32,000 nt of DNA, from NCBI GenBank assembly GCA_942493105.1, contig OW818668.1, positions 600,001 through 632,000 on the forward strand. Direction: 5' to 3'. The notes under the pieces were generated by a model. That model was given only the letters and a program-made list of their open reading frames with translations. It was not told the DNA's origin and made no database searches. Position numbers and translations under genes: made by a program. Shown here one piece after another: positions 1-27,974 of this stretch. Origin of the DNA: an uncultured Erysipelotrichaceae bacterium. Its GTDB lineage: Bacteria; Bacillota_I; Bacilli_A; Erysipelotrichales; Erysipelotrichaceae. The stretch's first letter is position 1, and every line of letters begins with the position of its first letter.

Positions 1-78
1 TAATCCAGAATCACCACACCCACTTAATCCTGTAGCCACCATCAATATTATAGTTAATATCCAAATTGTTTTTTTCAT
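1..78 (-). CDS. Lipoprotein, N-terminal fragment (gene continues off the left edge)
   Basis: Reverse complement of 1..78 reads MKKTIWILTIILMVATGLSGCGDSGL: basic n-region, hydrophobic core, lipobox L-S-G-C. ATG at 76-78. Absent from the ORF track because the window truncates it. Confidence 0.5.
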   Translation of the reverse strand, partial: MKKTIWILTIILMVATGLSGCGDSGL

Positions 79-242
79 GATGAATCTTTCCTGAGATCCC
101 CAATTGTGAACTCATTTTATTATTTGATTCTAAATCATAAGACTTGCTTCTCTGCTTGTATCACTTAACTATAGAATACCCTAATTCTTATTTGATTGTA
201 AACAGAATCGTAAACACTTTTTACATCTGCCTATGCAAAATA

Positions 243-266
243 AAAGTAAGCTGTTAGGCTTACTTT
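243..266 (-). terminator. Intrinsic terminator after the 3D-domain lipoprotein gene
   Basis: Perfect 9-bp stem aaagtaagc (243-251) / gcttacttt (258-266) with a 6-nt loop. On the minus strand it is followed by tattttgc. The stem overlaps the last codons. Confidence 0.5.
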
Positions 267-1102: not shown

Positions 1103-1198
1103 ACAATTCCTCCTTGATAACGGGAGTATTTTTACACAAGTTTATGAGTTTGTCAAATTTTCGGGCTTAAAACCAGGGTTTTTTGACCATTATGGGAA

Positions 1199-1966
1199 TT
1201 ATTCAAAGAGTTTCACATAGTTTCTTTCGAGGATTTCTTGAAGTTCACTAGAGCTTATCCCACGAAGTTCAGCGATTTTTTCTCCCGTATGTTTGACATA
1301 AGCACTCTCATTTCGATGGCCTCTGAAAGGATGAGGCGTAAGGTATGGACTATCTGTTTCAATCAATAAATGATTTAAATCGATGCCTTTTGCGACTTCA
1401 ACTGGGACATGAGCATTTTTAAAGGTCACTGGACCTGCAAGCGAGATCATATATCCTAACTTACTAAATTCCTTGGCCATTTCAAGTGAACTCGAGAAAC
1501 AATGCATGATCCCTTTACGTGTCACAGGATGGGCTTTCAATAAATTATAGGTCCTTTGGATCGAATCTCGTGAATGAACGAGGATGGGCTTGTTTAAAGC
1601 ATTAGCCAATTCAATTTGACGAATAAAAACAGTTTCTTGAATTTGATGATGAATGGGATCTTTATCCCAATAAAAATCTAGCCCAATTTCACCGATGGCG
1701 ATCGTTAAAGGATCCTTCATCATGATTTCCATTTCATCCCATTCTGCTTGTGTTAAATTCAAGACATCTTCAGGATGAAAACCAACTGCGACTTTAAAAA
1801 TTGGATCTTTCTTCGCTAAGGCTAAAGCTCGCTTAGCGCCTTCGATTTGACAACCAATCAATATGATTCTTTTTATGTCATTGGTTTTCGCTCTGTCTAT
1901 GACTTCTTGTATATCATTTTCAAATTCTGCTTCTGCCAAATGGGCATGTGTATCACTCCAGCTCAT
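1199..1966 (-). CDS. tatD: TatD-family metal-dependent DNase/hydrolase (YabD-like)
   Basis: N-terminal SDTHAHL motif, then GEIGLDFYW, HSRD and ETDSPYL motifs. I prefer the ATG at 1964-1966 (MSWSDTHAHL), 1 nt after the mnmE stop, over the track start at 2002. Confidence 0.85.
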   Translation of the reverse strand: MSWSDTHAHLAEAEFENDIQEVIDRAKTNDIKRIILIGCQIEGAKRALALAKKDPIFKVAVGFHPEDVLNLTQAEWDEMEIMMKDPLTIAIGEIGLDFYWDKDPIHHQIQETVFIRQIELANALNKPILVHSRDSIQRTYNLLKAHPVTRKGIMHCFSSSLEMAKEFSKLGYMISLAGPVTFKNAHVPVEVAKGIDLNHLLIETDSPYLTPHPFRGHRNESAYVKHTGEKIAELRGISSSELQEILERNYVKLFE

Positions 1967-1967
1967 T

Positions 1968-3305
1968 TTATTTACCCAAACAGAATCGAGCGAACAATTC
2001 ATCAGCGATCGATGTGTTGTTTTCAGGATCGGTCAATGCGCATATGGATTCATATGCCGCGGTAAGATCGATATTGATGAGGTCAACCGCGACTTCATCT
2101 TTGATCGCAATAAGCGCTGAATCCATTGATTGTAGGGCTTGTCTAACCAGTCCTACCATTCTTTCATTGTTTAAAACAGGCTTTGTGAAAACAAATTGGT
2201 CAGCTTCATAGCGTTCATTCAGTTGATCGATCAAAGCTTTGATGTCTTTATGAAGGGCACTGACTTCCAGTCGATTTGATTTTGAATTTAGATCTTTTTT
2301 ATTGTAGATGATGATGGTTTTATTTGGATCTAGTTTTGATAAGACCTGTTGTTCATCTTGATCTAAAGGTTTTGAGCCATCTGCCACAAACAAAATGAGT
2401 TGCGCATCTTTGATGATCTGGTATGTTTTTTCGATCCCGAGTTTTTCGATTCGATCTTCACTTTCACGTAAACCAGCGGTATCCATCAAGTGTAAGGTAA
2501 CCTTATCTAGTCTGATGGTTCCTTCGACCACATCTCTGGTGGTCCCTGGAATTTCAGTCACGATGGCTTTATCTTCATTAAGTAAGGCATTGAGTAAAGA
2601 TGACTTCCCCACATTAGGTTTCCCAATGATGGCTGTTTTGACCCCTTCTCGCATACGCTGTCCGCTTTGAGCTTCCTTAAGGATATGAACCAATTTGTCT
2701 CTGAATTCTACACATAAAGGAAGAAGTTGTTGACGTGTGATTTGTTCAATATCGTATTCGGGATAATCGATGTTGACTTCGATGTGGGCGATGATCGCTA
2801 AGAGTTCTTCTTTTAAAGGTTCGCTTAATTGCGATAAGGAGCCTTTGAGCTGATTAAGTGCCAGCTTTGCGCTTTGTTCGCTATCTGCTTCAATCAACGC
2901 ATTAACACCTTCCGCTTGGGCCAAATCGATTCTGCCATGTAGAACTGCCCTTTGGGTAAATTCACCTGGACGCGCCAATCTTGCCCCTGCACCAATGATC
3001 AGCGATAAGATTTTCTGGGTAACGTAAACACCACCATGTGTGTGGATTTCAACCACATCTTCTCGTGTATAAGACTTAGGTCCTTTCATGACTAAAATAA
3101 GGACTTCATCGATTTGTTCATCTGTGAGCGGATCATGAATAAAACCATAGCAGATGCGATGATCTTGGTTTTTAAGGTTGAGATGAGTCAGTCTTTCAGC
3201 GATTTCGATGGCATCATCACCACTGATTCGACAAATGGAAATGGCTTGCGTCTGTAAAGACGTCGCCAAAGCCACAATAGGGTCTAATTTCATGTCAGTC
3301 TTCAA
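1968..3305 (-). CDS. mnmE: tRNA modification GTPase MnmE
   Basis: G-domain motifs GKPNVGKSSLLN, DTAGLR, NKKDL, and the C-terminal FCLGK signature of MnmE. An alternative start is Met5 (3293). Confidence 0.95.
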   Translation of the reverse strand: MKTDMKLDPIVALATSLQTQAISICRISGDDAIEIAERLTHLNLKNQDHRICYGFIHDPLTDEQIDEVLILVMKGPKSYTREDVVEIHTHGGVYVTQKILSLIIGAGARLARPGEFTQRAVLHGRIDLAQAEGVNALIEADSEQSAKLALNQLKGSLSQLSEPLKEELLAIIAHIEVNIDYPEYDIEQITRQQLLPLCVEFRDKLVHILKEAQSGQRMREGVKTAIIGKPNVGKSSLLNALLNEDKAIVTEIPGTTRDVVEGTIRLDKVTLHLMDTAGLRESEDRIEKLGIEKTYQIIKDAQLILFVADGSKPLDQDEQQVLSKLDPNKTIIIYNKKDLNSKSNRLEVSALHKDIKALIDQLNERYEADQFVFTKPVLNNERMVGLVRQALQSMDSALIAIKDEVAVDLINIDLTAAYESICALTDPENNTSIADELFARFCLGK

Positions 3306-4149
3306 TGACTCCCATAAGTTCTAGTAAGCGGTTTAAATCATCATCATCTTGGTAGTTGATGGTCACGGCTTTGTGATCGATCTTAACTTTGGTTTGAAAT
3401 TTGTTGGTCAGTAATCTTTCCGCATAACTATAGTCTGTGGTTTTGATTTCAGGTTTGGTTGAGGTCTTTTTATCTTTGACCAGTTTTTCAACATCTCTGG
3501 CACTCAAACCTTCTTTGACGATCTTTTCGGCTAAGGTTTGAATCTTGTGTGGATCATCTAAAGTAATCAAAGGTTTAACTTGACCCATCGTCAATACTTT
3601 ATTTAACAGTAAATCTTGGACAGACTTAGGTAACTGTAAAAGACGCAAAGTGTTGGTGATATGAACCCTGCTTTTACCTACTTTTTTCGCTAAAGTTTCT
3701 TGAGTCATGTTCATGCGGGTTAAGATATTATCATAAGCCTTGGCTTCTTCGATGATGTTGAGATCTTCACGCTGTATGTTTTCAATCAGTGAGATTTCCA
3801 TCATTTCTGATTCTGTAAATTCTAGAATGATTGAAGGAATGGTCTTAAGTTGAGCTACTTTAGCAGCTCTTAATCGTCTTTCTCCCGCAATCAATTGATA
3901 ACCGCTTACTGCTTTTCTTATTAAGATTGGGGTAAAAACACCGTGTTCACGGATGGATTGAGCCAATTCTTCGATTTTTACTTCATCGAAATGGATCCTG
4001 GGTTGATAAGGATTAGGATGTATCAATTCTAGTGGTACTTCTTCAGAGTTATTGGCATGTGAGCGTTGGATCTCTTCCAATACTGTACTGACATTTTCTC
4101 CAAAAATGGCTTCTAGGCCTCTACCTAGACGAGGTTTTTCATCAGCCAT
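3295..4149 (-). CDS. parB: Chromosome partitioning protein ParB/Spo0J
   Basis: N-terminal LGRGLEAIFG, ParB box IAGERRLRAA, HTH segment. Lies immediately downstream of soj. Confidence 0.9.
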   Translation of the reverse strand: MADEKPRLGRGLEAIFGENVSTVLEEIQRSHANNSEEVPLELIHPNPYQPRIHFDEVKIEELAQSIREHGVFTPILIRKAVSGYQLIAGERRLRAAKVAQLKTIPSIILEFTESEMMEISLIENIQREDLNIIEEAKAYDNILTRMNMTQETLAKKVGKSRVHITNTLRLLQLPKSVQDLLLNKVLTMGQVKPLITLDDPHKIQTLAEKIVKEGLSARDVEKLVKDKKTSTKPEIKTTDYSYAERLLTNKFQTKVKIDHKAVTINYQDDDDLNRLLELMGVIED

Positions 4150-4151
4150 AC

Positions 4152-4928
4152 TTATTCCTCCTTCTTGTTGGCAGCCAAGACTTCTTTCGCTAATGCAGCA
4201 TAAGCTTTGGCGCCTTCTGATCGAACATCATATTCAAATATGCTTTGTCCACGTGATGGGGCTTCTGATAATTTTATGTTTCTGGGAATAAATGAACGAT
4301 AGACCCTTTCTTTAAAGTACTTACGAACTTCTTGTTGAACTTCTAAACTCAACTTGGTCCTTGCATCAAACATGGTCAATAAGAGTCCTTCAATGATCAG
4401 CTTATCATTGAATAAACGCTGTACCAATCTTATGGTAGAAAGCAATTGAGTTAAACCTTCCAAGGCATAGTATTCACATTGAACAGGGATAAGAACAGAA
4501 TCTGCAGCCGTCAGTGCATTGGTATTTAGTAAACCAAGTGATGGAGGACAATCAATGATGATATAGTCATATTCGTGTTTGATGACGTCGAGTTTATTCT
4601 TAAGCAAACGTTCTCTGCCAACTTTATAATCAGCCATTTCTAGATCAGCTCCAGCTAAATCAATGGTTGCTGGAATCAGCGTCAATGGGGGATGGATCAA
4701 TTTTAGCGCAACTTCTTTGACAGTATGATTCTCCATCAAAACATTGTAAACACTGAGCTTGATGCTTTCTCTAGGTGTTCCAACGCCTTGGGTGGTATTG
4801 CCTTGCGGATCAAAATCAACCAAAAGCACTTTTTGGTTAAAGTAAGATAAGCCAGCAGCTAAATTGATGGCTGTCGTTGTTTTACCTACTCCGCCTTTTT
4901 GATTCGCAACTGCTATGATTTTGCCCAT
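4152..4928 (-). CDS. soj: Chromosome partitioning ATPase ParA/Soj
   Basis: Deviant Walker A NQKGGVGKTTT, and IIIDCPPSLG. Confidence 0.95.
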   Translation of the reverse strand: MGKIIAVANQKGGVGKTTTAINLAAGLSYFNQKVLLVDFDPQGNTTQGVGTPRESIKLSVYNVLMENHTVKEVALKLIHPPLTLIPATIDLAGADLEMADYKVGRERLLKNKLDVIKHEYDYIIIDCPPSLGLLNTNALTAADSVLIPVQCEYYALEGLTQLLSTIRLVQRLFNDKLIIEGLLLTMFDARTKLSLEVQQEVRKYFKERVYRSFIPRNIKLSEAPSRGQSIFEYDVRSEGAKAYAALAKEVLAANKKEE

Positions 4929-4940
4929 ACGTCTCTCTTT

Positions 4941-5699
4941 CTACTTTTTGAATCGGATCACGAATTCGATCGCATCCTCTTTATCGGTTTGTTTATAATC
5001 AAGTTTGATCCCAGTTCTTTCAATCATTTTGATTGAAGCAATGATCGTGTTTACAGCAATCTGTAGGTTTCGTGTAATGCCTTTAGTCGTTGGTTTTCTT
5101 TTAGGTTCAGTCGCATGATGTTCAATCAAAGCTTCGGTTTGTCTCACATTTAGATTTTGACCGATCACTTTATTGAAGATGCCTAATCTTTCTTGTGGAT
5201 CAGCCGCCAATAAAGCTCTGGCATGTCGTTCTGTGATTTGATGAGTAGATACCGCATCTTGTATTTCTTGAGGCAATTGAAGCAAGCGGATCTTGTTGGC
5301 GACAGAAGATTGTGACTTACCCATTTTTTGAGCAATCTTATCTTGAGTCAAAGCTTGATTTTCAATCATGACCAAGAAAGCTTTCGCTTCTTCGATGGCA
5401 GACAGATCTTCGCGTTGAATGTTTTCAACTAGAGCCATTTCTGCCAATTGAGTATCATTAACTTGTGAAATGATACAGGGTATGGCTGTATATCCAAGTA
5501 AAGTCATGGCCCTGAACCGGCGTTCACCTGCGATGATTTCAAATCCTCTTTCAATCGGTCTGACCGAAATCGGTTGGATCAACCCGTTTTCTTTTATGGA
5601 TGTGGCCAGTTCTTTCAATGTATCGTCGTCAAAATTCAAACGAGGCTGATAACGATTGGACTGGATCAAATGGACTGCAATTTCACGGGTTTCCTGCAT
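4941..5699 (-). CDS. noc: Second ParB-family paralog, Noc-like nucleoid occlusion protein (assigned by synteny)
   Basis: ParB box IAGERRFRAM. Its position between rsmG and soj matches B. subtilis rsmG-noc-soj-spo0J. It lacks the GRGL N-terminus of Spo0J. Confidence 0.65.
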   Translation of the reverse strand: MQETREIAVHLIQSNRYQPRLNFDDDTLKELATSIKENGLIQPISVRPIERGFEIIAGERRFRAMTLLGYTAIPCIISQVNDTQLAEMALVENIQREDLSAIEEAKAFLVMIENQALTQDKIAQKMGKSQSSVANKIRLLQLPQEIQDAVSTHQITERHARALLAADPQERLGIFNKVIGQNLNVRQTEALIEHHATEPKRKPTTKGITRNLQIAVNTIIASIKMIERTGIKLDYKQTDKEDAIEFVIRFKK

Positions 5700-5707
5700 A
5701 ACTTCTC

Positions 5708-6403
5708 CTATAGGGGGTTCTTTTTGATTTGATTGTAAGCTCTAGGATAACTGGCTTTGGTTGTTTTGGTTTTTTGAAAGACAAGGTTTACTCTTAATCC
5801 AGCAGTAGGTAGTGTGACAGGTTTTGCCTCTAGTACAGTGAGATTCAGCAATCCTATTGCTTTTTGAGCCTCATTGAGTTCTTCAAGTGCTTTTTGGCCT
5901 TTCATCGCGATCATCAGACCACCAACTTTAATCAAAGGTACACAAAGTTCAAGCAAGATGGAAAGCGATGCGACGGCTCGTGCTGTTACCACATCGTAAG
6001 TTTCACGAAGATGTGTGAGTTCTTCAGCGCGTTTGTTGAGCACTTCTACGTTTTTTAAACCCAATTCATCGATGACTGTTTGTAGAAATAGACATCGTTT
6101 TGTGGTGGGTTCAATCAAGGTAACTTGGATATCATCACGAATGATTGCTAAACACAATCCAGGAAAACCAGCACCAGAACCTACATCAGCGACTTTATCA
6201 CCTGCTTTTATGTGAGGTGATATCAAACAACTGTCTAGGAAATGTTTCTCAACGACTTCCTGTGGATCGATTATGGCCGTTAGGTTCATCACTTTGTTGA
6301 CTTCGATCAAACGATCTAGATAGGTCTCAAACTGAGCCATAACGACGTTTAAATCGCGAGTAGTGAACACGCTAAGTTGGTGTTTGAAAGTTTCCTGATT
6401 CAT
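5708..6403 (-). CDS. rsmG: 16S rRNA (guanine527-N7)-methyltransferase RsmG
   Basis: SAM-binding motif DVGSGAGFPGL. Located downstream of mnmG. Confidence 0.9.
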   Translation of the reverse strand: MNQETFKHQLSVFTTRDLNVVMAQFETYLDRLIEVNKVMNLTAIIDPQEVVEKHFLDSCLISPHIKAGDKVADVGSGAGFPGLCLAIIRDDIQVTLIEPTTKRCLFLQTVIDELGLKNVEVLNKRAEELTHLRETYDVVTARAVASLSILLELCVPLIKVGGLMIAMKGQKALEELNEAQKAIGLLNLTVLEAKPVTLPTAGLRVNLVFQKTKTTKASYPRAYNQIKKNPL

Positions 6404-6435
6404 ATAAGAATTATAACAAATTCCACTCTGCTTTT

Positions 6436-8304
6436 TTAGTCTTTGTCTGATTTGTTTTTCCTGATGGCCAAGAAATTGACCAGCACGGTGATGTCTGCAG
6501 GATTCACTCCAGAAATCCTTGAGGCTTGGCCTAAAGTCAGAGGACGAATTTTTGTGAGTTTTTGGCGACCTTCTATGGAGAGATGTGGAACTTGCGCATA
6601 ATCAAAGGTAGGATCCAGTTTATAGTTGTTGAGGGTCTCATGACGCTTAGCTTCTTTTAGAGCTTTTGCGATATAACCTTCATATTTGATTTCAATCTCT
6701 GCTTGATCGATGACTTCTTGTTCAAAAGGTGTGAAGTCAAAGAAAGGTTGAAGATCTAGATTGGTGATATGCGGGCGTTTAAGGCATTCATAGGCACTTA
6801 AGCCTTCTGTCATGTCGGTATAGCCCTTTTCTTTCATCAATTCGTTGACTTGATCTTTAACAGTATATCGAACTTGCTTAAGCAGTGTGATGAGTTGTTG
6901 AGTAGAGTCGGCTCGTTGGCGAACTTTTTCTATACGATACTGAGGTAATAAACCAATCACATACCCTTTTTCAGATAATCGTGTTTCTGCATTGTCATGT
7001 CTAAGCAGTAATCTGTGTTCTGCACGCGATGTCAATAAACGATACGGCTCTTGCGTTCCTTTGGTGACCAGATCATCGATCATGACCCCAATATACGCTT
7101 CATCTCGCCCCAATATAAAAGGTTCTTTACCTTGAAGTTGAAGGGCCGCGTTGATACCAGCTACTAAACCTTGACCTGCTGCTTCTTCATAACCGCTGGT
7201 CCCATTGATTTGTCCTGCACAGAAAAGATGCTTGATGGTTTTAACTTCTAGGGTTGGGTAAAGCTGAGTTGGTTCAATCGCGTCATATTCGATCGCATAG
7301 GCATACTTATCAATGACACAGTGTTCTAATCCAGGTAATGAACGAATCATCTCGTCTTGAACCTCATGAGGCATAGAGGTTGAAAAGCCTTGGGTATAGG
7401 TCGTATCTAAAGATTTTGATTCTGGTTCTAAGAAGATTTGATGACGATCTTTATCCGCAAATCGAACCAGTTTATCTTCGATCGATGGGCAATAACGAGG
7501 TCCTACCCCTTCAACAAGCCCTGAATACATTGCAGATCGTTTGAGGTTCAGTTTGATCACTTCATGTGTTTTGGGCTGTGTATAAATTAGGAAACAAGGC
7601 ACTTGTTCTTTTGGAAATTTCTCTTGTGGGAAATCCATTGAAAAGTGGATGAATTGTTGATCACCAGGTTGAAGAAGACCTTTTGAGAAATCAATCGAGT
7701 TCGTTTTGATGCGTGGAGGTGTTCCTGTTTTTAACCTAAAAGTCTTAAGACCTGCATCTCTAAGCGATTGTGATAATAAACTGGTGGTTGGTTCTCCTTC
7801 AGGTCCACTGATGGTTGCGGTCGATCCAACCAATATCTTTGAAGACATGTAGGTTCCAGAAGTCAATATGACCGACTCACACATTAGTGTTTCTCCACTT
7901 TCAAGTAATACACCTTGAGCTTTGTTATTTTCAATCAAGATCTTAGTCGCAAGACCTTCTTTGACGTGTAGATTTGGGGTATGATGAACCACATCTTCCA
8001 TCATTTTTGAATAGGCCACTTTATCAGATTGAACTCTTAGACATTGAACGCCTGGTCCTTTGTTGGTATTGAGCATTTTAAACTGTATGGCTGTAAAGTC
8101 TGATGTGATACCCATCTGTCCGCCTAAAGCATCGATTTCACGCACGACAATGCCTTTGGCAGGTCCACCAATCGAAGGATTACAGTTCATGATGCCAATA
8201 CGATGTTCATTGCTGGTTAAAAGAATGGTTTCAATTCCCATTCGTGCACTTGATAGAGCCGCTTCTATTCCGGCATGTCCTGCTCCTACAACGATAATCC
8301 TCAT
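6436..8304 (-). CDS. mnmG: tRNA uridine 5-carboxymethylaminomethyl modification enzyme MnmG (GidA)
   Basis: FAD motif VVGAGHAGIEAA, 622 aa, characteristic GQINGTSGYEEAAGQG. Confidence 0.97.
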   Translation of the reverse strand: MRIIVVGAGHAGIEAALSSARMGIETILLTSNEHRIGIMNCNPSIGGPAKGIVVREIDALGGQMGITSDFTAIQFKMLNTNKGPGVQCLRVQSDKVAYSKMMEDVVHHTPNLHVKEGLATKILIENNKAQGVLLESGETLMCESVILTSGTYMSSKILVGSTATISGPEGEPTTSLLSQSLRDAGLKTFRLKTGTPPRIKTNSIDFSKGLLQPGDQQFIHFSMDFPQEKFPKEQVPCFLIYTQPKTHEVIKLNLKRSAMYSGLVEGVGPRYCPSIEDKLVRFADKDRHQIFLEPESKSLDTTYTQGFSTSMPHEVQDEMIRSLPGLEHCVIDKYAYAIEYDAIEPTQLYPTLEVKTIKHLFCAGQINGTSGYEEAAGQGLVAGINAALQLQGKEPFILGRDEAYIGVMIDDLVTKGTQEPYRLLTSRAEHRLLLRHDNAETRLSEKGYVIGLLPQYRIEKVRQRADSTQQLITLLKQVRYTVKDQVNELMKEKGYTDMTEGLSAYECLKRPHITNLDLQPFFDFTPFEQEVIDQAEIEIKYEGYIAKALKEAKRHETLNNYKLDPTFDYAQVPHLSIEGRQKLTKIRPLTLGQASRISGVNPADITVLVNFLAIRKNKSDKD

Positions 8305-8368
8305 GTTTGTCCTCGCTTAACTATTTTAGCACAGACCTGACACTCGCAAACCAAGTAGCGCATTATGG

Positions 8369-8377
8369 TGCTATAAT
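8369..8377 (+). promoter_or_regulatory. Extended -10 promoter element (TGcTATAAT) for the ferritin-like/VIT gene
   Basis: tgctataat at 8369-8377, about 17 nt upstream of the ATG at 8394. SD gaggtga at 8384-8390. Confidence 0.4.
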
Positions 8378-8393
8378 TTTTGTGAGGTGAGTT

Positions 8394-9260
8394 ATGATCA
8401 GCGATAAAATAAAAAAAGATATTTTGAAGATGCAGGAAGGTGAATTGACAGAGTATCATATTTATACTGCCATCGCAAAAGGCATGAAAAATGATAAAAA
8501 TGCTGAAATCATAGCCCGTATTGGGAAAGAAGAAAGAGCACACGCTAAGATTTGGGAAATTTACACCAAAACTGAAGTTAAACCCAATATGAATAAGGTA
8601 AGATGGTATGCCTTTCTTAGTAAAGTGTTTGGATTTACCTTTGCGATCAAATTGATGGAAAATGGAGAAGGCGATGCCAGTATTGCTTATCAAGAAATCG
8701 CCAAAGAAGTTCCTGAAGCTTTAAAAATCGCTGAAGATGAAGATAAACATGAAAAAGCTTTGATTGATTTACTTGATGAAGAACGATTACAGTATGTAGG
8801 TTCAATGGTATTGGGCCTTAATGATGCCTTGGTTGAATTAACAGGAACTTTAGCTGGTTTATCCTTTGCCCTACAAAACACAAAGCTCATCGCTTTGAGC
8901 GGCTTGATCACAGGGATCTCCGCAACTTTATCCATGATGAGTTCTGAATACTTATCTGCGAGATCTGATGGAAATCCACATCCTTTCAAATCAGCAGGGT
9001 ATACAGGGATCATGTATATCGTGGCTGTCGTATTGATGACTTTACCTTATCTATTACTGGATGATTATAGGATCGCCTTGGCAAGTTTATTGATTACTGT
9101 TGTCTTGATCATCTTGGTCTTTACTTATTATGTCTCAGTTGCCAAAGATTTGCCTTTTAAGAAACGTTTCCTAGAAATGGTTTCAATCTCAATGTCGGTT
9201 GCCTTGGTTGCCTTCATCATTGGGGTCATCGTTAAACAATTCTTAGGCATCGAAGTATAA
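8394..9260 (+). CDS. Ferritin-like (erythrin) domain fused to a VIT1/CCC1-family iron/manganese transporter (MbfA-like)
   Basis: N-terminal ELTEYHIYTAIA ... EERAHAKIWE di-iron-type helices. C-terminal half is hydrophobic and VIT-like (LGLNDALVELTG ... SMMSSEYLS). Confidence 0.8.
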   Translation: MISDKIKKDILKMQEGELTEYHIYTAIAKGMKNDKNAEIIARIGKEERAHAKIWEIYTKTEVKPNMNKVRWYAFLSKVFGFTFAIKLMENGEGDASIAYQEIAKEVPEALKIAEDEDKHEKALIDLLDEERLQYVGSMVLGLNDALVELTGTLAGLSFALQNTKLIALSGLITGISATLSMMSSEYLSARSDGNPHPFKSAGYTGIMYIVAVVLMTLPYLLLDDYRIALASLLITVVLIILVFTYYVSVAKDLPFKKRFLEMVSISMSVALVAFIIGVIVKQFLGIEV

Positions 9261-14527: not shown

Positions 14528-15163
14528 TTAATCTATTGGAAACGGAATATTCTCTTTTGAAAGACTGGCTTCCCATAAATAGAATGAAGCATATGTTTGA
14601 TAAGGCGCTGTTTTTTGATAAATCTCAGCGAAGAATTCTTTTGATACCTTCTCTAGATGATATAGACGCATGATGCCTCTTCTAATGGCCAAATCATCAT
14701 AACTCATCACATCCATCTTCTTCAAACTAAAAATAAGGACCATTTGTACAGTCCATAGACCAACACCTTTAATTGGTAATAATGACTCAATAATTTCTTG
14801 AGTACTCATGGTTTGTAGTGCGTCCCATTTTATGGAACCATCCAGTTTTGTTTGTGCGACGTTTTTTAAGTAGGATGCTTTTGAGCCAGATAAACCTAAA
14901 GTTCTCAGCTCTTCGATTGGTGTGTCTATGATGGCTTGTGGATCACCGTTAGGAAATCGTGCAAACACTTTCTTTCCGATAGATTCAGCAGCTTTACCTG
15001 ATACTTGTTGAGCTATGATGCAATCAAGGGTTGAAACATAAGGGTCTTCAAGGGTACTTCGACTTAAAGAACCTGTTTTCTTAATGAATGCACCTAAAAT
15101 ACCATCTTGTTTACAGAGAAATTCAATGGCTTCTTGACTAACTGTGATTTGTTCTTGACTCAT
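14528..15163 (-). CDS. HhH-GPD DNA glycosylase, AlkA-like 3-methyladenine DNA glycosylase II
   Basis: HhH segment LLPIKGVGLWTVQMVLIF followed by a conserved Asp (SYDDLAIRRG). The ATG overlaps the metG stop (ATGA at 15160-15163). Confidence 0.75.
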   Translation of the reverse strand: MSQEQITVSQEAIEFLCKQDGILGAFIKKTGSLSRSTLEDPYVSTLDCIIAQQVSGKAAESIGKKVFARFPNGDPQAIIDTPIEELRTLGLSGSKASYLKNVAQTKLDGSIKWDALQTMSTQEIIESLLPIKGVGLWTVQMVLIFSLKKMDVMSYDDLAIRRGIMRLYHLEKVSKEFFAEIYQKTAPYQTYASFYLWEASLSKENIPFPID

Positions 15164-17077: not shown

Positions 17078-17274
17078 GTGCAAAAGAAAAGCGCCCGCTA
17101 AGGACGCTTTCACGTGGTTCCACCTTAGTTCACCGTCATACGACAGTGCACTCGATCCCATATCGCCGGGTCGCGCTGATGGTTAATAAGCCCATACTTG
17201 TTAGGTTCATGACCGGTTTTCACCAAGCACCGGTTCTCTATGCAATCGCCAAACATTCATGCTCTCATCAAGAT
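17078..17274 (-). promoter_or_regulatory. T-box riboswitch leader, methionine specifier (AUG), with terminator/antiterminator
   Basis: Minus strand shows, in canonical order: AGAGA bulge (17235-17239), distal loop GGTGAAAA, specifier tcATGAacc (AUG at 17208-17210 followed by A), T-box gaactaAGGTGGaACCacGtg (17111-17131), and terminator aaagcgtcc-ttagc-gggcgcttt + tcttttg (17082-17110). Confidence 0.85.
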
Positions 17275-17280
17275 AGGTCA

Positions 17281-17351: not shown

Positions 17352-18338
17352 TTATTTGATTTTTGTAGCGCTTCCAATATTTCCGTCATAACTTACCGCA
17401 ACTATTTCAGTTGTAACATTATTTTGATTGGCATTAAACCTTAATTCTAGGAACATCACATCATTAGCTTGATTTCCATATTTGAATGTGATGAAGCGAG
17501 TATTATATAGACCTTTGCTTTCATTGAGTTTACTTAAGGTTGCTGGTAGATTATAGGGACTTCCAGCTCTTTTAAATTGTACATTGACACTTCTGTCTTC
17601 ATCTTCCACACCATCACTATTTTTAGTAAACGTCATTTCCCCGGAAATGATCAAAGTCATCTTCTCGTTAACAGCATATTGTGTTTCTTTACCATAATCG
17701 CCCCACTGTATGACCCATGTCCCCTCCCACTTTGTGGTTTCTTTGTAGGACCAACTCTCAACAGTGTATTTCCAACCTTCTTGATAATCGTATTTCGCTT
17801 TGACTGTAGAGGTCAGTTTTGATGTCCAAAGATTGACAGTTTCATTTCTTTCAAGCACATAATTTGCCTCACCACGCTCTAAATTCAAACTCTTTGATAA
17901 GATGACTGGTTCAACTGTATTGATGCCTATTTCAAATTGTTTGTTGAGTTCAGGATCGACTTTAAATTCTTTTAGGACCTCTTTCTCATCCGTTTCATTT
18001 TTAACACCTACCGCCTTATAGGTAAACTGTGTATTAACAGCTTTCCATGTTTTTTTATCCCATTCATAATTGATGATGATTTCACCTGACACAATGGCTT
18101 CCCCATTATCATAGGTCAAATCTGCGATGACCAGTGCTTGGGTTCCCTGAACTGCTTGAGTATTTACTTTAATGGAGACTACTTTTTCAAATTTTGCCTT
18201 TATTAAATCCAAGACGACTGCGTCTTGTTGAATTTGTTCAATGGTTACTTGTGTTGTTGGTTTGGTGGAATTTGTACATGCTGCCATGCTCATGATCAGG
18301 ATGGCAATGATTCCAACTTTGATAATTTTGGAGTTCAA
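17352..18338 (-). CDS. Lipoprotein of unknown function (paralog A)
   Basis: TTG start with SD aagga 6 nt upstream. Signal peptide MNSKIIKVGIIAILIMSMAAC (lipobox M-A-A-C). Shares YDYxxGW / TLxxxG blocks with the ORF at 20745..21716. Confidence 0.7.
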   Translation of the reverse strand: MNSKIIKVGIIAILIMSMAACTNSTKPTTQVTIEQIQQDAVVLDLIKAKFEKVVSIKVNTQAVQGTQALVIADLTYDNGEAIVSGEIIINYEWDKKTWKAVNTQFTYKAVGVKNETDEKEVLKEFKVDPELNKQFEIGINTVEPVILSKSLNLERGEANYVLERNETVNLWTSKLTSTVKAKYDYQEGWKYTVESWSYKETTKWEGTWVIQWGDYGKETQYAVNEKMTLIISGEMTFTKNSDGVEDEDRSVNVQFKRAGSPYNLPATLSKLNESKGLYNTRFITFKYGNQANDVMFLELRFNANQNNVTTEIVAVSYDGNIGSATKIK

Positions 18339-18442: not shown

Positions 18443-18469
18443 AAGAAACCTGCACCAAATCGGTGCAGG
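18443..18469 (-). terminator. Intrinsic terminator after the vWA gene
   Basis: Minus strand: cctgcacc-gattt-ggtgcagg, followed by tttctta. Begins 5 nt after the stop. Confidence 0.7.
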
Positions 18470-18473
18470 GCTC

Positions 18474-19823
18474 TTATTCATAGATTGTATAGGACAATTG
18501 TGACAGATTCAGGATACTGAATTCATAGGCTTTGAAACTATCAATACAAAGACTTCCGGCGAATTCATTAAGCCCTATAAAAGCCTCTTCAGGGTAAATT
18601 GATGCGGTTTGAGTTAAGTTTATAAACCCTTTACTGAGTTTAAGCCTTAATTTAAGATCAATTAAACCTACTTTAATGAGACCGCAATCAATATGGAAAT
18701 CTTGACTGAACATCTTTATTGGCTCTTCCCTTAGAGTTTCTCGTAAAGTCGACACATGCGATTTTGAATCAAAGATGAAGTTTGTTTTCTTACCATGGAC
18801 TTCAGCCACCATCCCCAAATGGCCGTTGATCATTTTTAATGGGACGATTTGTTTCTTCATTCTGGTCATGAGTAGTGTTTCTATATCGTCAGTAGGTTCA
18901 CAAAATTCCGTCTTTATATGATCATATTTACAACTAAACAATACTTTGACTTGAGACAGGATGTCTTGTCCAATCATCCCATCAATGGGTAATCCTGAGA
19001 AACTGCGATATCTTTGAAGTAAAGGGCTTCCACTCAGTTGATATGTTTTGTTGAGGATGGTTACTTGAGAAACATCTCCTATAGAGATGGGAAGATCTGT
19101 TGCGATCAAGAAACGTCCTTCAAGACATTCAACGATCGGTAGTTTCTGATAAACTACACGCATTTCGTCCATGACTGAAAATTTTTCACGCCAATGATTA
19201 GAAATACTTTTTGAGGAACGATATGATTTCACACTATCTGATACACTTTCAAAAGCATCAACTGTTTTTGATTTATCATAATTGGCTTGACGATCTCTGG
19301 CAAAACCCATTCTGTCCGCATCTTCTCCTCTACTGAGATCTGCGCCAAGATAAATGAATTCCCATCCGTCAACTTGATTTTTATGATGAATCAACTCGCG
19401 AATTTGCGCATAACTATAATGATGACTGGCATTTTCCATCCCATCAGTAATGATGACGAAGATGGCCCCTGAATTATCTTTTGTTTTTCCTTCTTCCAAA
19501 TGAATGGCCTGAAGATCATATACAGCTTTCCCAATCGCATCCAACAAAGCCGTTGAACCCCGTACATAATATTCATTTTTCGTAATGGGACACACTTCTC
19601 GGATATCTAAGCGTTCATGAACGATTTCATATTCACTATCAAATAAGATCGTAGAGACGCGCGCTTGACCTGTTTCATTTTTTTGTTTCACTAAGAAACT
19701 ATTATAACCTCCAATCGTATCGCTTTCCCTGCCCCCCATACTACCTGATCGATCTAAAATAAAAACGATATCAGTTATGTGGTTTGAGGGTTGAATGATA
19801 TGATCTTCTGTTTTTTGTATCAT
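18474..19823 (-). CDS. Cytoplasmic von Willebrand factor A (MIDAS) domain protein with a C-terminal tandem retropepsin-like region
   Basis: MIDAS DRSGS (aa 24-28), GSTAL (T91), ITDGMEN (D127). No signal peptide. C-terminal aa 228-440 carry two repeats resembling clan-AA protease lobes (FLIATDLP...IDGMIGQDIL and FIFDSKSH...AFIGLNEF). Confidence 0.8.
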   Translation of the reverse strand: MIQKTEDHIIQPSNHITDIVFILDRSGSMGGRESDTIGGYNSFLVKQKNETGQARVSTILFDSEYEIVHERLDIREVCPITKNEYYVRGSTALLDAIGKAVYDLQAIHLEEGKTKDNSGAIFVIITDGMENASHHYSYAQIRELIHHKNQVDGWEFIYLGADLSRGEDADRMGFARDRQANYDKSKTVDAFESVSDSVKSYRSSKSISNHWREKFSVMDEMRVVYQKLPIVECLEGRFLIATDLPISIGDVSQVTILNKTYQLSGSPLLQRYRSFSGLPIDGMIGQDILSQVKVLFSCKYDHIKTEFCEPTDDIETLLMTRMKKQIVPLKMINGHLGMVAEVHGKKTNFIFDSKSHVSTLRETLREEPIKMFSQDFHIDCGLIKVGLIDLKLRLKLSKGFINLTQTASIYPEEAFIGLNEFAGSLCIDSFKAYEFSILNLSQLSYTIYE

Positions 19824-20626
19824 TGTTTTTCCTTTGTTGTTTGAATATAAAGCGGTTGTTTAATACGATCATAAAACGCAAGAACTTTCATATGCAAAGC
19901 AGGAGCCAATGTCGTCATAATGATTTGGTCGTAAAGTGGTTTTGGAATCGGTCCATAAAATGCTTCTGCGATACCACCCGCAATGGCAGCTTGGGTATCA
20001 CTGTCTCCACCAAGCGAGACAGCTTTCTTTATCGCATCCAGCACACTTGTTGAATCTAGAAAAGCTATGATGGCAGGTGGAACAGATCCTTGGCAAGTGA
20101 CGTCAAAGCTCACATAGGGCCTGATTTCTTCTATGGTGTGAACAAGGTCATAACAGAATTGTTTTGAGATGGTTTGGCGTATCTCATCTTTCGTTGCCCT
20201 TTTTCTAGCCATGAAGATCGATAATGCCACAGCCTGGGCACCTTTGATGCCTTCAGGATGATTATGTGTGACTTCAGCTGATCTTTTTGCTTCAGAAAGG
20301 ACTTCTTCGGCTGTCTCAAATAACCAACCGATGGGTGACACACGCATCGCAGAGCCATTCCCAAAGCTATTGTAGGGTTTTGTTTCACGATGATGAACCC
20401 AAAGATTAAAGCTTGATCCATAACCGCGATGAGGATAATTCAAGGTGTACTGTTGATAAGCTTGGTTAAATGTCATACCGCTTAGGTAAACATCCATAGT
20501 CGCTACTGTCAATACACTGTCATCTGTAAACCTAGAGTTTTCACTCATCAATTCAAACATTGTCGTCTTGATTGGCTTGTGTTCATAAGCACTTCCGATG
20601 ATGTCCCCTAAGATTGTCCCAATCAT
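19820..20626 (-). CDS. ADP-ribosylglycohydrolase family protein (ARH/DraG-like)
   Basis: MIGTILGDIIGSAYE, FTDDSVLTVA, GNGSAMRVSPIG, GGDSDTQAAIAGGIAEA metal-site motifs. SD ggagg 8 nt upstream. Stop overlaps the vWA ATG (ATGA). Confidence 0.9.
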   Translation of the reverse strand: MIGTILGDIIGSAYEHKPIKTTMFELMSENSRFTDDSVLTVATMDVYLSGMTFNQAYQQYTLNYPHRGYGSSFNLWVHHRETKPYNSFGNGSAMRVSPIGWLFETAEEVLSEAKRSAEVTHNHPEGIKGAQAVALSIFMARKRATKDEIRQTISKQFCYDLVHTIEEIRPYVSFDVTCQGSVPPAIIAFLDSTSVLDAIKKAVSLGGDSDTQAAIAGGIAEAFYGPIPKPLYDQIIMTTLAPALHMKVLAFYDRIKQPLYIQTTKEKQ

Positions 20627-20693
20627 GGCTCTTCCTCCCTTTTTATTTAATCTCAGTATAAATAAACCGCAAGTTCATATTTTAATGTGTCCA

Positions 20694-20721
20694 ACAAAAA
20701 GGACAGATATTAATCTGTCCT
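20694..20721 (-). terminator. Intrinsic terminator after lipoprotein paralog B
   Basis: Minus strand: aggacagat-taat-atctgtcct, followed by ttttgttg. Confidence 0.7.
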
Positions 20722-20744
20722 TGGTCTATTTGACTACCTTTTAC

Positions 20745-21716
20745 TTAAGGTTGAGTTACTTTTGCGTGACTATGATCGATGCTTATGGCATAGAACAAAG
20801 CATTGACCGAGGTCACTCCTCGATATTCCTCTTGCCCATAAGCGAAAATAAAACTCTCTTTCTCTTCAACCCCAAATTGAATGTTGATTTGATCTATGAA
20901 TTGCCCCAAAACCAATGATGGCTTTACTGTAAACTTTTGTTCTCTAAATGTAACCTGTGCATTTAAGGTATTTGATACAATTTTCGAGCTTGAATCTAAA
21001 CTGCCTGTCGCTCTGATTTGACCTGTAAGTTCAAGCGTTGTGGATTCGTTGTTGGCATAATATGTTTCCCCATCCATGATATCCCACGTTAAGTTATACA
21101 CACCATTATAGGTATATGTCGTATCATGTGTACGTTCTGCTACCTCAAAGACCCATCCTTGAGGATAATCATAAGATCCAACAACTCTGATGGTTCGATA
21201 ACTGATATAGGGTCCTTCTGATACTGTGTATGCATATGTAAAGCTTGATAGGCCATGGGGTAAGTCAAGGGTTTGATCTATAAATAACACGTCTTCGATC
21301 GGATAAGGATTCTTATTGATGCCTTCAAACCAACGTGCTGTTTGAAGCAAAGCTTCAGAACTGGTAGGAACTTTCGTAACTGCTGTTACATTGGTTGCTG
21401 AAAAATAGAGGTTACTCAAATTCCATTTGTTGAACTGATAGTCATAAAGCAAGGTATATTTTCCACTTAAAGTACATTCTTCATTATTTAAAGTTAAAGT
21501 CCCATTGATGATCCAGTGAGAATCTGTTTTCTTCTCAATGTTGTATACATTTTTATCAATGTTTATGACATTGAATTGTCCATCAAAAATACTGAGCACT
21601 GCCGCTCTTATTGTTTCATCTTTTAGATCAGGGATCTCTGTTTCAGGTTTTGCTGGATCACATGCACTTAAACTTAGTAACATGACCAAGCATAAGCACA
21701 GTCTAGTTGCTTTCAT
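20745..21716 (-). CDS. Lipoprotein of unknown function (paralog B)
   Basis: I prefer the ATG at 21714-21716 (MKATRLCLCLVMLLSLSAC, lipobox L-S-A-C), with SD gagg (21724-21727) and -10 TATACT (21730-21735). The track start at 21767 adds a non-signal extension. Confidence 0.7.
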   Translation of the reverse strand: MKATRLCLCLVMLLSLSACDPAKPETEIPDLKDETIRAAVLSIFDGQFNVINIDKNVYNIEKKTDSHWIINGTLTLNNEECTLSGKYTLLYDYQFNKWNLSNLYFSATNVTAVTKVPTSSEALLQTARWFEGINKNPYPIEDVLFIDQTLDLPHGLSSFTYAYTVSEGPYISYRTIRVVGSYDYPQGWVFEVAERTHDTTYTYNGVYNLTWDIMDGETYYANNESTTLELTGQIRATGSLDSSSKIVSNTLNAQVTFREQKFTVKPSLVLGQFIDQINIQFGVEEKESFIFAYGQEEYRGVTSVNALFYAISIDHSHAKVTQP

Positions 21717-21774
21717 GAATATTCCTCGCAGTATAAGTTTAAATCTTATCGTTAGGAAAGTAAACAACTTGAAT

Positions 21775-21858: not shown

Positions 21859-22782
21859 TTATGTTTGTAGCTGAATTTGTGGAATAACTGCCGGTAGATA
21901 TCGAATATTGGACCTTGGATTTGAGAGAACCTCATCGTATTCATGAGGGGTCATTCGATGTAGATCCCATTGAGGACGATCGTAATTATAGTAGTTGATG
22001 TATGAAATGAGGCATTCAGCCAATCGATCGTAAGAATTGATTTTGGAGAGGTCCAGTTCTGTTTTAAGCACGGCGTAGAAGGATTCCTGAGGGGCGTTAT
22101 CCCAACAGTTTCCGCGCCGAGACATCGACTGAGTAATGTCGTGTTTTGAGAGAAGATCCTGATAGTCGATGCTGGTGTAGTGACTCCCCTGATCAGAATG
22201 AAGGATGAACTTCATATGCAGTTCACCGTGATAATTCTGTAGAAGTTGATTCACCGTATCGATGACGAAATCCAATTCAAGTGACCCAGACAACTGCCAA
22301 GCCAAGATCTTCTTGGTCGTGGCGTCTTTGATGGTGGATAAATACGCTCGCTTCCCGTTCCCATACTTGATATACGTGATGTCCGTCAATAAGACCTTCT
22401 TGGCTGCGCCTTGCGAGAAATTTCGATTGAGGATGTTACTGAAGACTTTGTTGCTGTGCTGAGCTTTAATGATTGCGATGATCGGGTTCGCCTTGCGGAT
22501 CGGACAGAAGAGTTGATATTTTCTCATGAGTCGCCGGATCTTTTTGAGGTTCATATTTATGCCGTAATCCCTCGTAAGCCTCATTTTAATCTGTTTTGCG
22601 CCTTTTTTGAACCCTTTGTGGTCATAAGCCGCTTTGATCGCGATAAAATCGAGCTTGTCTCTCATTTCTCTCTCACCCATCGTCAATCTTCGCTTCTTAT
22701 AGGCGTAGTATCCCGATCGTGATACTTTGGCTTGGGTACACATATACTTAATGTCCAGTCGGTTCTTCCTTCGACCTTCCAT
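21859..22782 (-). CDS. IS3-family transposase OrfB (DDE/rve integrase core), expressed as an OrfAB fusion by -1 frameshift
   Basis: DDE triad context: LLTDITYI, LHSDQGSHYTS, GNCWDNAPQESF. The frame stays open upstream to the slippery site. Confidence 0.9.
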   Translation of the reverse strand: MEGRRKNRLDIKYMCTQAKVSRSGYYAYKKRRLTMGEREMRDKLDFIAIKAAYDHKGFKKGAKQIKMRLTRDYGINMNLKKIRRLMRKYQLFCPIRKANPIIAIIKAQHSNKVFSNILNRNFSQGAAKKVLLTDITYIKYGNGKRAYLSTIKDATTKKILAWQLSGSLELDFVIDTVNQLLQNYHGELHMKFILHSDQGSHYTSIDYQDLLSKHDITQSMSRRGNCWDNAPQESFYAVLKTELDLSKINSYDRLAECLISYINYYNYDRPQWDLHRMTPHEYDEVLSNPRSNIRYLPAVIPQIQLQT

Positions 22783-22823
22783 TGCCCAAATGATCTCAAA
22801 TTTCTTTTCTGCGCCGAGTTGCT

Positions 22824-23222
22824 TTATTCCCCCCTTTCCAGCGCTTTCAGTTTTTTTAAGAATTCGTTCTCCTGTTCAAGGTATTCATTTCTATCTTTCA
22901 GATACCGGTTCTCTTCTTCAGGACTACTGAATGTCATTTTCTTCGGTCGTCCTGGTGATTTGAGTCGCTCAAATCCTTTCGGTCGCTTCGCTTGTAGCCG
23001 CGCTCTATGAAAGAGGGATTCCAGTCGCTCTTTCCCAAACAACTCCGAGTCGATACTAAGCTCTTTTAAGATCTGTTTCTGTGGCTTTCCTTGCCTACTT
23101 TCACTGAGGATGATTGCCTTGAATTCCGGCGTAAACTGAACTGAATTTTCTGTCGCACTTAAAACATATTTATTGTTTCTTAATCTTTCAATTGCTTCTG
23201 GACTAAATTTCACTTTGGCCAT
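22824..23222 (-). CDS. IS3-family transposase OrfA (HTH / leucine-zipper)
   Basis: 132 aa, HTH-like N-terminus, C-terminal heptad-rich NRYLKDRNEYLEQENEFLKKLKALE. SD ggaggt upstream. Confidence 0.9.
   Translation of the reverse strand: MAKVKFSPEAIERLRNNKYVLSATENSVQFTPEFKAIILSESRQGKPQKQILKELSIDSELFGKERLESLFHRARLQAKRPKGFERLKSPGRPKKMTFSSPEEENRYLKDRNEYLEQENEFLKKLKALERGE
22851..22857 (-). other. Programmed -1 ribosomal frameshift heptamer A AAA AAA
   Basis: Minus strand reads tta aaa aaa ctg in the orfA frame. Shifting -1 gives act gaa agc ..., which runs directly into the orfB frame (..EIIWAMEGRRKNRL). Confidence 0.7.
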
Positions 23223-27422: not shown

Positions 27423-27974
27423 ATGAACTTGATCGAAAAGAAATTATCTGGCAATCTTAAATTTAAAGGAAAGATCATTGAGGTCCATCATGATGAGATC
27501 TTATTGCCTAATGGTGATCAATCCATGCGTGAGATCGTTAAACATCCTGGTGGCGTTTGTATTGCGGCACAAAATGAAAAAGGTGAGTTTTTATTGGTTG
27601 AACAATTTCGTTATGTCTTCGATCAGGTCTTATTGGAATTTACGGCTGGTAAATTAGAAAAAGATGAGAATCCTTTAGATGCTGCCAATCGAGAACTTAT
27701 TGAAGAGACAGGCTATGAAGCCTTAGAAATGATTCCTCTAGGTACGATTTATCCTTCTCCTGGTTATTTAGGTGAAATCATTTATCTCTACTATGCCCCA
27801 AAAACAAAGTTCGTCGGTCAAAAACTCGATCATCATGAATTTCTAAACGTTAAAACGTACCTTTTAGATCAATTGATAGAATTGGTTATGAATGATCAGC
27901 TCAACGACTCAAAAACCATCGCTTTGATCATGAAGTTATCACAACTGAAGCCATCACTTATAAAAGAAATCTAG
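27423..27974 (+). CDS. nudF: ADP-ribose pyrophosphatase (NUDIX hydrolase)
   Basis: Nudix box GKLEKDENPLDAANRELIEETGY. The N-terminal beta domain is typical of NudF/YqkG. Confidence 0.85.
   Translation: MNLIEKKLSGNLKFKGKIIEVHHDEILLPNGDQSMREIVKHPGGVCIAAQNEKGEFLLVEQFRYVFDQVLLEFTAGKLEKDENPLDAANRELIEETGYEALEMIPLGTIYPSPGYLGEIIYLYYAPKTKFVGQKLDHHEFLNVKTYLLDQLIELVMNDQLNDSKTIALIMKLSQLKPSLIKEI

Follow-up and report, generated by a model that had tools for sequence, protein, structure and literature searches.

What does an eraser of ADP-ribosylation do when its gene is tightly coupled to that of a von Willebrand factor A (vWA) protein and no writer of the mark is encoded nearby? The question was raised by a gene pair in a 32,000-nt stretch from an uncultured Erysipelotrichaceae bacterium (assembly GCA_942493105.1, contig OW818668.1, positions 600,001 to 632,000; the whole stretch is called the window, and coordinates refer to it unless another locus is named). 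The pair was located on the minus strand and comprised (i) an ADP-ribosylglycohydrolase (ARH) gene at 19820..20626, encoding a 268-aa protein of the short ARH3/DraG-superfamily form and assigned from its open reading frame (ORF), PF03747, a PDB sequence search, and phrog_6572, and (ii) a gene at 18474..19823, encoding a 449-aa cytoplasmic protein that carried a vWA domain with a metal-ion-dependent adhesion site (MIDAS) plus a retropepsin-like tail and was assigned from its ORF, a 19-sequence alignment, and an AlphaFold2 (AF2) model. This pair is a real, conserved, and functionally linked module of uncharacterised function. We tentatively read it as a writer-less ADP-ribose-erasing module in which the vWA protein would recruit ADP-ribosylated substrates to ARH, and we put the likelihood of this reading somewhat short of even.

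The ARH stop codon and the vWA start codon overlapped in an ATGA at 19820..19823 (minus strand; read directly as 'tcat' on the plus strand), which couples the translation of the two genes, and terminator-like hairpins on the same strand were called by a promoter/terminator scan on both sides of the pair: (i) one at 18449..18469, with a 9-bp stem, six GC pairs, and a T-rich tail, starting 5 nt 3′ of the vWA stop codon, and (ii) one at 20699..20722, closing the upstream lipoprotein gene and thereby insulating the 5′ end of the pair. Across the region, eight such sites were called, compared to 2.8 ± 1.6 in shuffles. An earlier reading of this DNA from its sequence alone (the sequence-only reading) had described the same overlap, terminators at 18443–18469 and 20694–20721, and a self-contained two-gene operon; the ATGA was confirmed, the hairpins lay close to the claimed positions, and together they bear out a self-contained, tightly coupled two-gene unit. 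A GGGAGG ribosome-binding site at 20634..20639 (minus strand; read directly) preceded the ARH ATG by 7 nt; the 72-nt spacer 5′ of ARH yielded no consensus sigma-70 promoter when scanned by simple means.

ARH matched PF03747 over residues 1–225 (E 2.8e-32; 113 bits vs a cut-off of 26.2) and phrog_6572 (E 2.4e-50); its nearest solved structures by PDB sequence search were ARH3, MJ1187, and DraG, with segments aligning to ARH3. The metal-site motifs were located as FTDDS from residue 33, GNGSAMR from residue 89, and GGDSDT from residue 206. T34, D35, D36, D208, D210, and T211 were invariant in a 19-sequence alignment, while E15, which we take to be the equivalent of Glu41 of ARH3, was at least 90% conserved. 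Judged by these residues, ARH carries a complete di-metal catalytic set and is predicted to be a competent eraser.

The vWA domain of the 449-aa protein (residues ~17–215; 19179..19775, minus strand) was assigned to a YegL/TerY-like clade by PF00092, Foldseek, and phrog_7371. Profile searches, which had been proposed for both proteins, were clear for ARH with PF03747 and marginal for the vWA domain with PF00092 (23.9 bits vs a cut-off of 23.8). The vWA fold is nevertheless firmly supported by structural modelling: the full 449-aa protein gave an AF2 model with a predicted local distance difference test score (pLDDT) of 82.7, and Foldseek matched the modelled vWA domain to integrin I-domains and the TRAP vWA (E ~1e-7; template modelling (TM) scores 0.58–0.70, normalised to single-domain targets). 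The MIDAS residues D24, S26, and S28 (DRSGS at 24–28), T91, and D127 were invariant in the 19-sequence alignment. The domain matched phrog_7371, a phage family of unknown function (E 5e-52); vWA homologues were labelled 'YegL' in source annotations, and one homologue had PF10138. The N-terminus (MIQKTEDHIIQPSNHITD...) was hydrophilic, with no signal peptide by eye. The intact ARH metal site, the complete MIDAS (DRSGS, T91, and D127), and the lack of a signal peptide had all been noticed from the sequence alone, and each held up. So did the absence of a writer near the pair: no ADP-ribosyltransferase (ART) or sirtuin writer was found in the 32-kb window (ORFs of at least 120 aa inspected by eye; Pfam applied to 14 ORFs).

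The sequence-only reading had named a gene-neighborhood survey as a test of the pair, and when this survey was run the adjacency proved to be kept well beyond the strain, through permutation of gene order and gene fusion; confinement to this strain, which that reading had named as a ground for refutation, was thus not observed. The survey covered 80 representative-genome loci (of more than 584) and 79 viral-contig loci (of more than 453) of the vWA clade. An orthologous pair, ARH followed by vWA in the same synteny, was found in Erysipelotrichaceae relatives whose vWA proteins were 57% and 64% identical to that of the window; the 4-nt ARH/vWA overlap was kept in the 64% relative (L255), and a 4-nt overlap between vWA and ARH was found in L087. 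A 36%-identical vWA-retropepsin protein (P0017) displayed the reversed order, with ARH downstream after a 12-nt gap and GmrSD and AddAB beside it, and P0108 was a 554-aa ARH-vWA fusion protein. ARH was immediately adjacent to vWA in 8 of the 80 representative-genome loci and was present within 20 of the 79 viral-contig loci, in both gene orders; the ARH-vWA spacing ranged from −4 to +17 nt across loci. In a neighbor-joining tree of ARH proteins (no support values), the ARH shared by the window and L002 and that of L004 fell on separate branches among 'solo' ARHs, and the ARHs of Clostridial and viral modules and of the fusion protein formed clades of their own; these separate branches suggest that ARH was recruited to vWA loci repeatedly and independently. 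The ARH-vWA link was strong when loci were collected by their vWA and rare when they were collected by their ARH. That most ARH homologues have no vWA neighbor is what a chance adjacency without functional link would leave behind, but the fusion protein, the permuted order, the gaps and the genome and viral counts given above, and the apparently independent recruitments leave chance with scarcely any probability, and the survey effectively refutes it.

The sequence comparison was extended to the other neighbors of the vWA clade. The commonest of them was a Macro-HTH protein of ~337 aa, which was encoded immediately upstream in 59 of the 73 assessable genome loci and was present within 41 of the 79 viral loci. 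It consisted of an N-terminal Macro domain (PF01661, E ~1e-35; MacroD-type motifs by eye) and a C-terminal XRE-like helix-turn-helix (HTH) module. Macro-HTH is the usual partner of the vWA clade and ARH the minority partner; Macro-HTH, vWA, and ARH followed one another in that order at seven genome loci. The window had vWA and ARH only in common with this Macro-HTH-vWA(-ARH) family: the Macro-HTH hidden Markov model (HMM) gave no match among the window ORFs at E values up to 10, and the HTH module was likewise absent. The Erysipelotrichaceae pair would represent one local version of a large uncharacterised 'eraser plus vWA' family distributed across Firmicutes and their phages.

Of the GenBank phage records, 219 contained relatives of vWA; Myrna gp207 from a Mycobacterium phage was among them, and phages of Streptomyces and jumbo phages were represented as well. 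The complete phage genome PV036457.1 carried Macro-HTH, a 151-aa gene, vWA, and an HD protein consecutively. The viral locus L204 (IMG/VR UViG_2895402339_000001, 228–8560) harbored nine same-strand genes, encoding DUF6994, an EEP nuclease/phosphatase, Macro-HTH, ARH, vWA, AAA_28, a second Macro protein, HhH-GPD, and DUF2325; it was the richest ADP-ribose- and DNA-repair-flavored version of the module among the loci surveyed. In L176, a DUF429 protein was encoded between Macro-HTH and vWA, and in the viral locus L224, a Ter-associated ATP-grasp domain was found beside the module. A second ARH copy, split into ORFs of 111 and 132 aa, was present at 8894–9605 of L020, ~3 kb downstream of a Macro-HTH-vWA-ARH operon, and may be a decaying duplicate.

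The HTH module was also found as a standalone, divergently transcribed gene at four loci (L004, L173, L174, and L175; Macro-HTH HMM, E 1e-10 to 1e-22) whose vWA-retropepsin proteins had intact protease motifs (see below); at a fifth such locus, L257, a divergent 161-aa upstream gene was similar, its resemblance being by layout alone. An HTH gene that stands alone and is divergently transcribed is laid out as a local repressor would be. This layout bears on a further explanation, which we consider very unlikely, namely that the module acts on ADP-ribosylated nucleic acids (DarT-like DNA marks, RNA), with HTH and vWA targeting DNA lesions, the phage copies serving as counter-defence, and the chromosomal copies serving in repair. 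The fusion of a Macro enzyme to an HTH module speaks for such a target, as do the EEP nuclease, HhH-GPD glycosylase, and additional Macro genes that surround the module in L204, the DUF429 gene inserted between Macro-HTH and vWA in L176, and the frequency of the module in phage genomes. The HTH module, however, also occurred standalone and divergent, in the classic arrangement of a local repressor and not that of a lesion-targeting domain; the window had no HTH module altogether, and its own HhH-GPD protein, with 25% identity over 75 aa to the L204 protein, was not related to it. ARH enzymes, moreover, are best known for acting on protein Arg- and Ser-linked ADP-ribose.

Other members of the vWA clade displayed different contexts. 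Mycobacterium phage Myrna gp207 (L259) and Streptomyces phage Evy gp98 (L260) were encoded beside tRNA gene clusters and HNH endonucleases, and neither locus had a Macro or ARH neighbor. Four Fusobacterium loci (L007–L010; P0079) encoded 246-aa vWA homologues with signal peptides beside TraT and had no eraser neighbor; in L011–L012 (P0070), a signal peptide and an N-terminal extension were fused to vWA, beside YopX in a phage-like context with no eraser nearby. Going by their sequences, the signal-peptide members probably represent a different, extracellular use of the same vWA clade.

The remainder of the 449-aa protein (residues ~229–449; 18477..19139, minus strand) was identified as a bilobed retropepsin-like domain by AF2, Foldseek, and motif comparison. 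Modelled alone, it gave a pLDDT of 89.8 and a predicted TM score (pTM) of 0.86, and its top Foldseek matches were tethered HIV-1 protease dimers, plasmepsins, and 9iy9 (a Bacteroides fragilis putative endopeptidase), with E values of 7e-6 to 1e-4 and low TM-scores of 0.37–0.57; its sequence profile weakly matched Ddi1 and FIV protease. According to the model, the tail is a single-chain, two-lobed retropepsin fold. The window protein had A241-T242-D243 in lobe 1 and D352-S353-K354 in lobe 2, where D-T-G is expected in both, and the window protein and all of its 13 close relatives conformed to A/V-[ST]-D in lobe 1 and D-[ST]-[KRIT] in lobe 2. The tail domain was 56% identical to that of P0005 and 42% identical to that of P0012, two clade members compared separately. 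Five more distant proteins (P0015, P0016, P0017, P0021, and P0024; 31–35% identity) harbored D-T-G-S-P in lobe 1 and D-T-G-A/S in lobe 2, together with I-G-M-D-I-L-type motifs in both lobes. Because D-T-G is replaced in both lobes, canonical aspartic catalysis is unlikely; the window tail is probably a catalytically inactive, peptide-binding module. That the degenerate motifs are conserved in the clade speaks for a non-catalytic function having been kept, binding being the most economical choice, although with D243 conserved a non-canonical active site stays formally open. Of the 'protease-like tail' described in the sequence-only reading, the aspartic-protease fold was thus borne out by AF2 and Foldseek, while the implied activity was not, the canonical catalytic motifs having been lost in this lineage.

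A profile of the tail domain collected 4444 representative proteins, which were mostly standalone proteins of ~225 aa, with some fused to an unrelated classical vWA; the standalone bilobed retropepsins and a 642-aa classical-vWA fusion had no ADP-ribose link at the loci examined. The relatives with intact motifs were found in conflict-type contexts, namely those of GmrSD, of RnlA plus Mrr, and of an integrase/excisionase element. Directly 3′ of two intact-motif vWA-retropepsin genes lay genes encoding homologous proteins of 169 aa (L174, 6287–6796) and 186 aa (L175, 1776–2336; mutual E 1e-10), which may be effectors; a GIY-YIG assignment of these two proteins was motif-like by eye and had no Pfam support, and no such claim is made.

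These relatives invite a different explanation, in which the vWA-retropepsin protein is, now or ancestrally, an effector: an active protease gated by ADP-ribosylation, whose switch is reset by ARH or Macro and whose expression is repressed by HTH, the window pair being a decayed remnant. The distant homologues retained D-T-G in both lobes and resided in defence-island or mobile settings, where a divergent HTH module was conserved, and the retropepsin lobe of P0017 weakly matched the PADLOC candidate PDC-M08B (E 1.5e-4), the sole PADLOC match obtained. The same bilobed domain also occurred joined to a classical vWA domain of another, unrelated kind and coupled with a MerR regulator, so that vWA plus protease appears as a recurrent functional unit in itself. 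We nonetheless judge a protease effector unlikely: ARH was next door in just one of the five intact-motif lineages examined, the far commoner Macro-HTH-vWA modules had no protease domain at all, and in the window the catalytic motifs were gone, yet the domain was well conserved.

The surroundings of the pair were compared with those of its relatives. Besides the pair, the window ORFs of at least 120 aa encoded housekeeping functions (mnmE/G, parAB, rsmG/I, metG, tmk, holB, cysK, and others), an IS3 transposase, and domain-less lipoproteins or membrane proteins. The sequence-only reading had placed the pair in an accessory stretch next to an insertion sequence (IS). The IS is present; the accessory character did not stand, since L255 displayed the order rsmI–rubrerythrin–lipoproteins–ARH–vWA–lipoproteins–metG–HhH-GPD with no IS. 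From this synteny in relatives lacking the IS3 element, it follows that the pair is chromosomally fixed in a conserved gene order and that IS3 is an incidental insertion. The IS3-family element (21859–23222, minus strand) encoded OrfA with HTH_Tnp_2 and OrfB with HTH_21 plus rve, and it lay between a rubrerythrin gene and a lipoprotein gene, a position occupied in L255 by extra lipoprotein paralogues.

Two paralogous lipoprotein genes (17352–18338 and 20745–21767, both minus strand; mutual match E 2e-14) flanked the pair; their products each carried a signal peptide with a lipobox and matched no Pfam domain. Terminators separated these genes from the pair. Larger lipoprotein sets were found at the same positions in relatives, with three upstream and two downstream in L255. 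The flanking lipoproteins were considered as the counterpart of the conserved ~337-aa upstream partner found elsewhere and were rejected: no resemblance was seen, that partner being Macro-HTH. A T-box leader (17097–17275, minus strand) was located 5′ of metG (67.7 bits, below the Rfam gathering score of 93; E 1e-14 for the short region searched), and Rfam gave no match in the window at the gathering threshold; given this leader, metG is separately regulated and lies outside the ARH-vWA transcription unit. An HhH-GPD glycosylase gene (14528–15163, minus strand) had a 4-nt overlap with the metG stop, which was kept in L002 and L255; its product was rejected as the counterpart of the HhH-GPD protein of L204, since at the identity given above it belonged to another subfamily. 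A standalone Nudix gene with no HTH (27423–27974, plus strand; NudF-like by eye) lay 6.8 kb from ARH, and its product could clear ADP-ribose freed by ARH. Positions 1–8304 held, by eye, an origin-proximal gene set (tatD, mnmE, parB, parA, a noc-like gene, rsmG, and mnmG), which places the ARH-vWA pair in the core chromosome near oriC.

Such a setting would suit housekeeping ADP-ribose hygiene, in which ARH clears endogenous or non-enzymatic adducts or metabolites (O-acetyl-ADP-ribose), vWA is a generic Mg2+-dependent chaperone, and no conflict role exists. This explanation draws on the fixation of the pair in an origin-proximal housekeeping neighborhood across relatives with vWA proteins 57–64% identical, on the NudF-like gene nearby, and on the very wide distribution of the ARH subfamily (at least 8000 matches), mostly as a solo gene in varied contexts. 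We regard it as quite unlikely in view of the broader vWA-eraser family, which was enriched on viral contigs and mobile elements and was accompanied by variable accessory genes (EEP nuclease, HhH-GPD, second Macro, AAA_28, HD, and DUF429) in the pattern of conflict systems.

The reading that we prefer, that of a writer-less erasing module with a recruiting vWA protein, can be put as a sequence of steps. In its favor count the recurrent linkage of vWA to erasers, the apparently independent recruitments of ARH, the intact ARH and MIDAS residues, the conserved degenerate tail, the conflict-type contexts of the intact-motif relatives, and the published prediction treated below. The vWA protein would act as a Mg2+-dependent substrate adaptor, its MIDAS capturing either the diphosphate of ADP-ribose or a target's acidic side chain and its dead protease cleft gripping an extended target peptide; the bound ADP-ribosylated macromolecule would then be passed to ARH, which would cut the bond between ADP-ribose and acceptor, and the free ADP-ribose would be removed by housekeeping Nudix enzymes. 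As no transferase is linked to the pair, the marks would be written in trans, either by ARTs of phages or competitors or by a writer encoded at some other place in the same genome. In Erysipelotrichaceae, the HTH regulator may have been lost along with proteolytic activity, leaving a pair fixed in the chromosome that serves repair or immunity; an immunity or defence role is what we infer at most from this arrangement.

Several points weigh against this reading. (i) Among the 80 metagenomic ARH loci closest to the window ARH, none had vWA, retropepsin, Macro-HTH, or any recurrent neighbor (apparent neighbor clusters around these ARHs proved to be other reading frames of ARH and were discarded), and ARH clearly works without vWA in most genomes. 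(ii) Many vWA-clade members were secreted or standalone with no eraser nearby, as in Fusobacterium and the lytic actinophages. (iii) The pair resided in a conserved core-genome region that had neither defence genes nor a regulator nor any mobile-element signature except the incidental IS, and this setting fits housekeeping as well as immunity. (iv) The ARH-vWA complex is putative, and binding of ADP-ribose by MIDAS sites is as yet a proposal. (v) The PADLOC (v2) models gave no real match to the window proteins or to the wider family.

A broader generalization would make the YegL/TerY-like MIDAS vWA a dedicated reader or adaptor of ADP-ribosylation that serves the two unrelated eraser folds, Macro and ARH, interchangeably and defines a large family of eraser-adaptor modules common to Firmicutes and their phages, being armed with a single-chain retropepsin in some lineages and domesticated and protease-dead in the window pair. 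We place it on the unlikely side; if true, ADP-ribosylhydrolases of bacteria or phages would for the first time have a known subunit that targets them to substrates. How writer-less ADP-ribose erasers locate their substrates is an open question that bears on phage-host and interbacterial conflict, in which ART toxins, DarT, CmdT, and T4 Alt/Mod are set against Macro, ARH, and NADAR erasers. A hard-wired partner of two unrelated eraser folds is a concrete, testable candidate for a targeting subunit, and the forms collected here (Macro-HTH-vWA, Macro-HTH-vWA-ARH, the ARH-vWA fusion, and the active-protease and protease-dead versions) make up a natural series for its dissection. The wider eraser-vWA family is the most valuable product of the analysis, and phrog_7371 can be flagged as probably connected to ADP-ribose biology.

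The pair was finally compared with known systems. DraG/DraT and Tri1/Tre1 share the ARH fold and di-metal chemistry with the window ARH, and Tri1 is an ARH that serves as immunity against ART toxins; both systems, however, have a cognate writer or toxin, of which none was found in the window, and neither has a vWA partner. The window ARH scored far below the NCBIfam equivalog cut-offs for DraG (TIGR02662, 35.6 vs 337.05) and Tri1 (NF041672, 33.2 vs 490), and the pair is not a DraG or Tri1 system. With the TerY-type vWA of the TerY-P triad (COG4245, YegL), the window protein has in common a small cytoplasmic MIDAS vWA, but TerY-P comprises a PP2C phosphatase and a Ser/Thr kinase, none of which flanked the pair, and the PADLOC TerY-P models were unmatched; the partners in the present clade are ADP-ribose hydrolases. 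The vWA-MoxR systems have an adjacent MoxR-type AAA+ ATPase, whereas the neighbors in the window were lipoprotein genes, metG, and IS3, with no AAA+ gene; the pair is neither a TerY-P nor a vWA-MoxR system. Ddi1, the tethered HIV-1 protease dimers, the plasmepsins, and 9iy9 display a two-lobed aspartic-protease fold like that of the window tail; clan AA aspartic peptidases carry D-T/S-G in each lobe, in contrast to A-T-D and D-S-K in the window protein, which is moreover fused to a vWA. PARP4 (vault PARP) also brings a vWA into the sphere of ADP-ribosylation, but there it is fused to a writer and not linked to an eraser, and the likeness is that of the generic vWA fold.

The closest precedent was a set of predicted, non-experimental ARG-centric anti-ADP-ribosylation systems that lack a writer, presented in section 3.8 of Iyer, Burroughs, Anantharaman, and Aravind (Viruses 2022, PMC9503650). 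A literature search of incomplete coverage found no description of Macro-HTH-vWA modules or of vWA-retropepsin plus ARH pairs, that paper being the only relevant one. The sequence-only reading had not recognized the pair as a described system, which stands insofar as PADLOC gave no match and has to be qualified insofar as writer-less systems of an ARH and a vWA 'chaperone' had been predicted there. According to that section, the systems are distributed in actinobacteria, planctomycetes, and proteobacteria and include Nudix- or WYL-HTH regulators as well as rhodanese, calcineurin, HD/HAD phosphatases, ARPP, and restriction endonucleases, none of which was present in the window; in the text consulted, there is no mention of a vWA-retropepsin fusion, of a Macro-HTH-vWA core, or of an occurrence in Firmicutes or phages. 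As far as described there, they differ from the window pair in their phylum and in the Nudix- or WYL-HTH regulator and coupled phosphatase, neither of which was adjacent to the window pair. They have Macro domains as occasional extra erasers and, in many cases, a sensor-HTH factor, of which Macro-HTH in the wider family would be the analogue. Like the window pair, they are described as having an ARG core with no coupled ART or sirtuin and a linked vWA, and the authors regard this vWA as a 'Mg2+-dependent peptide-binding chaperone' proposed to bind ADP-ribosylated targets.

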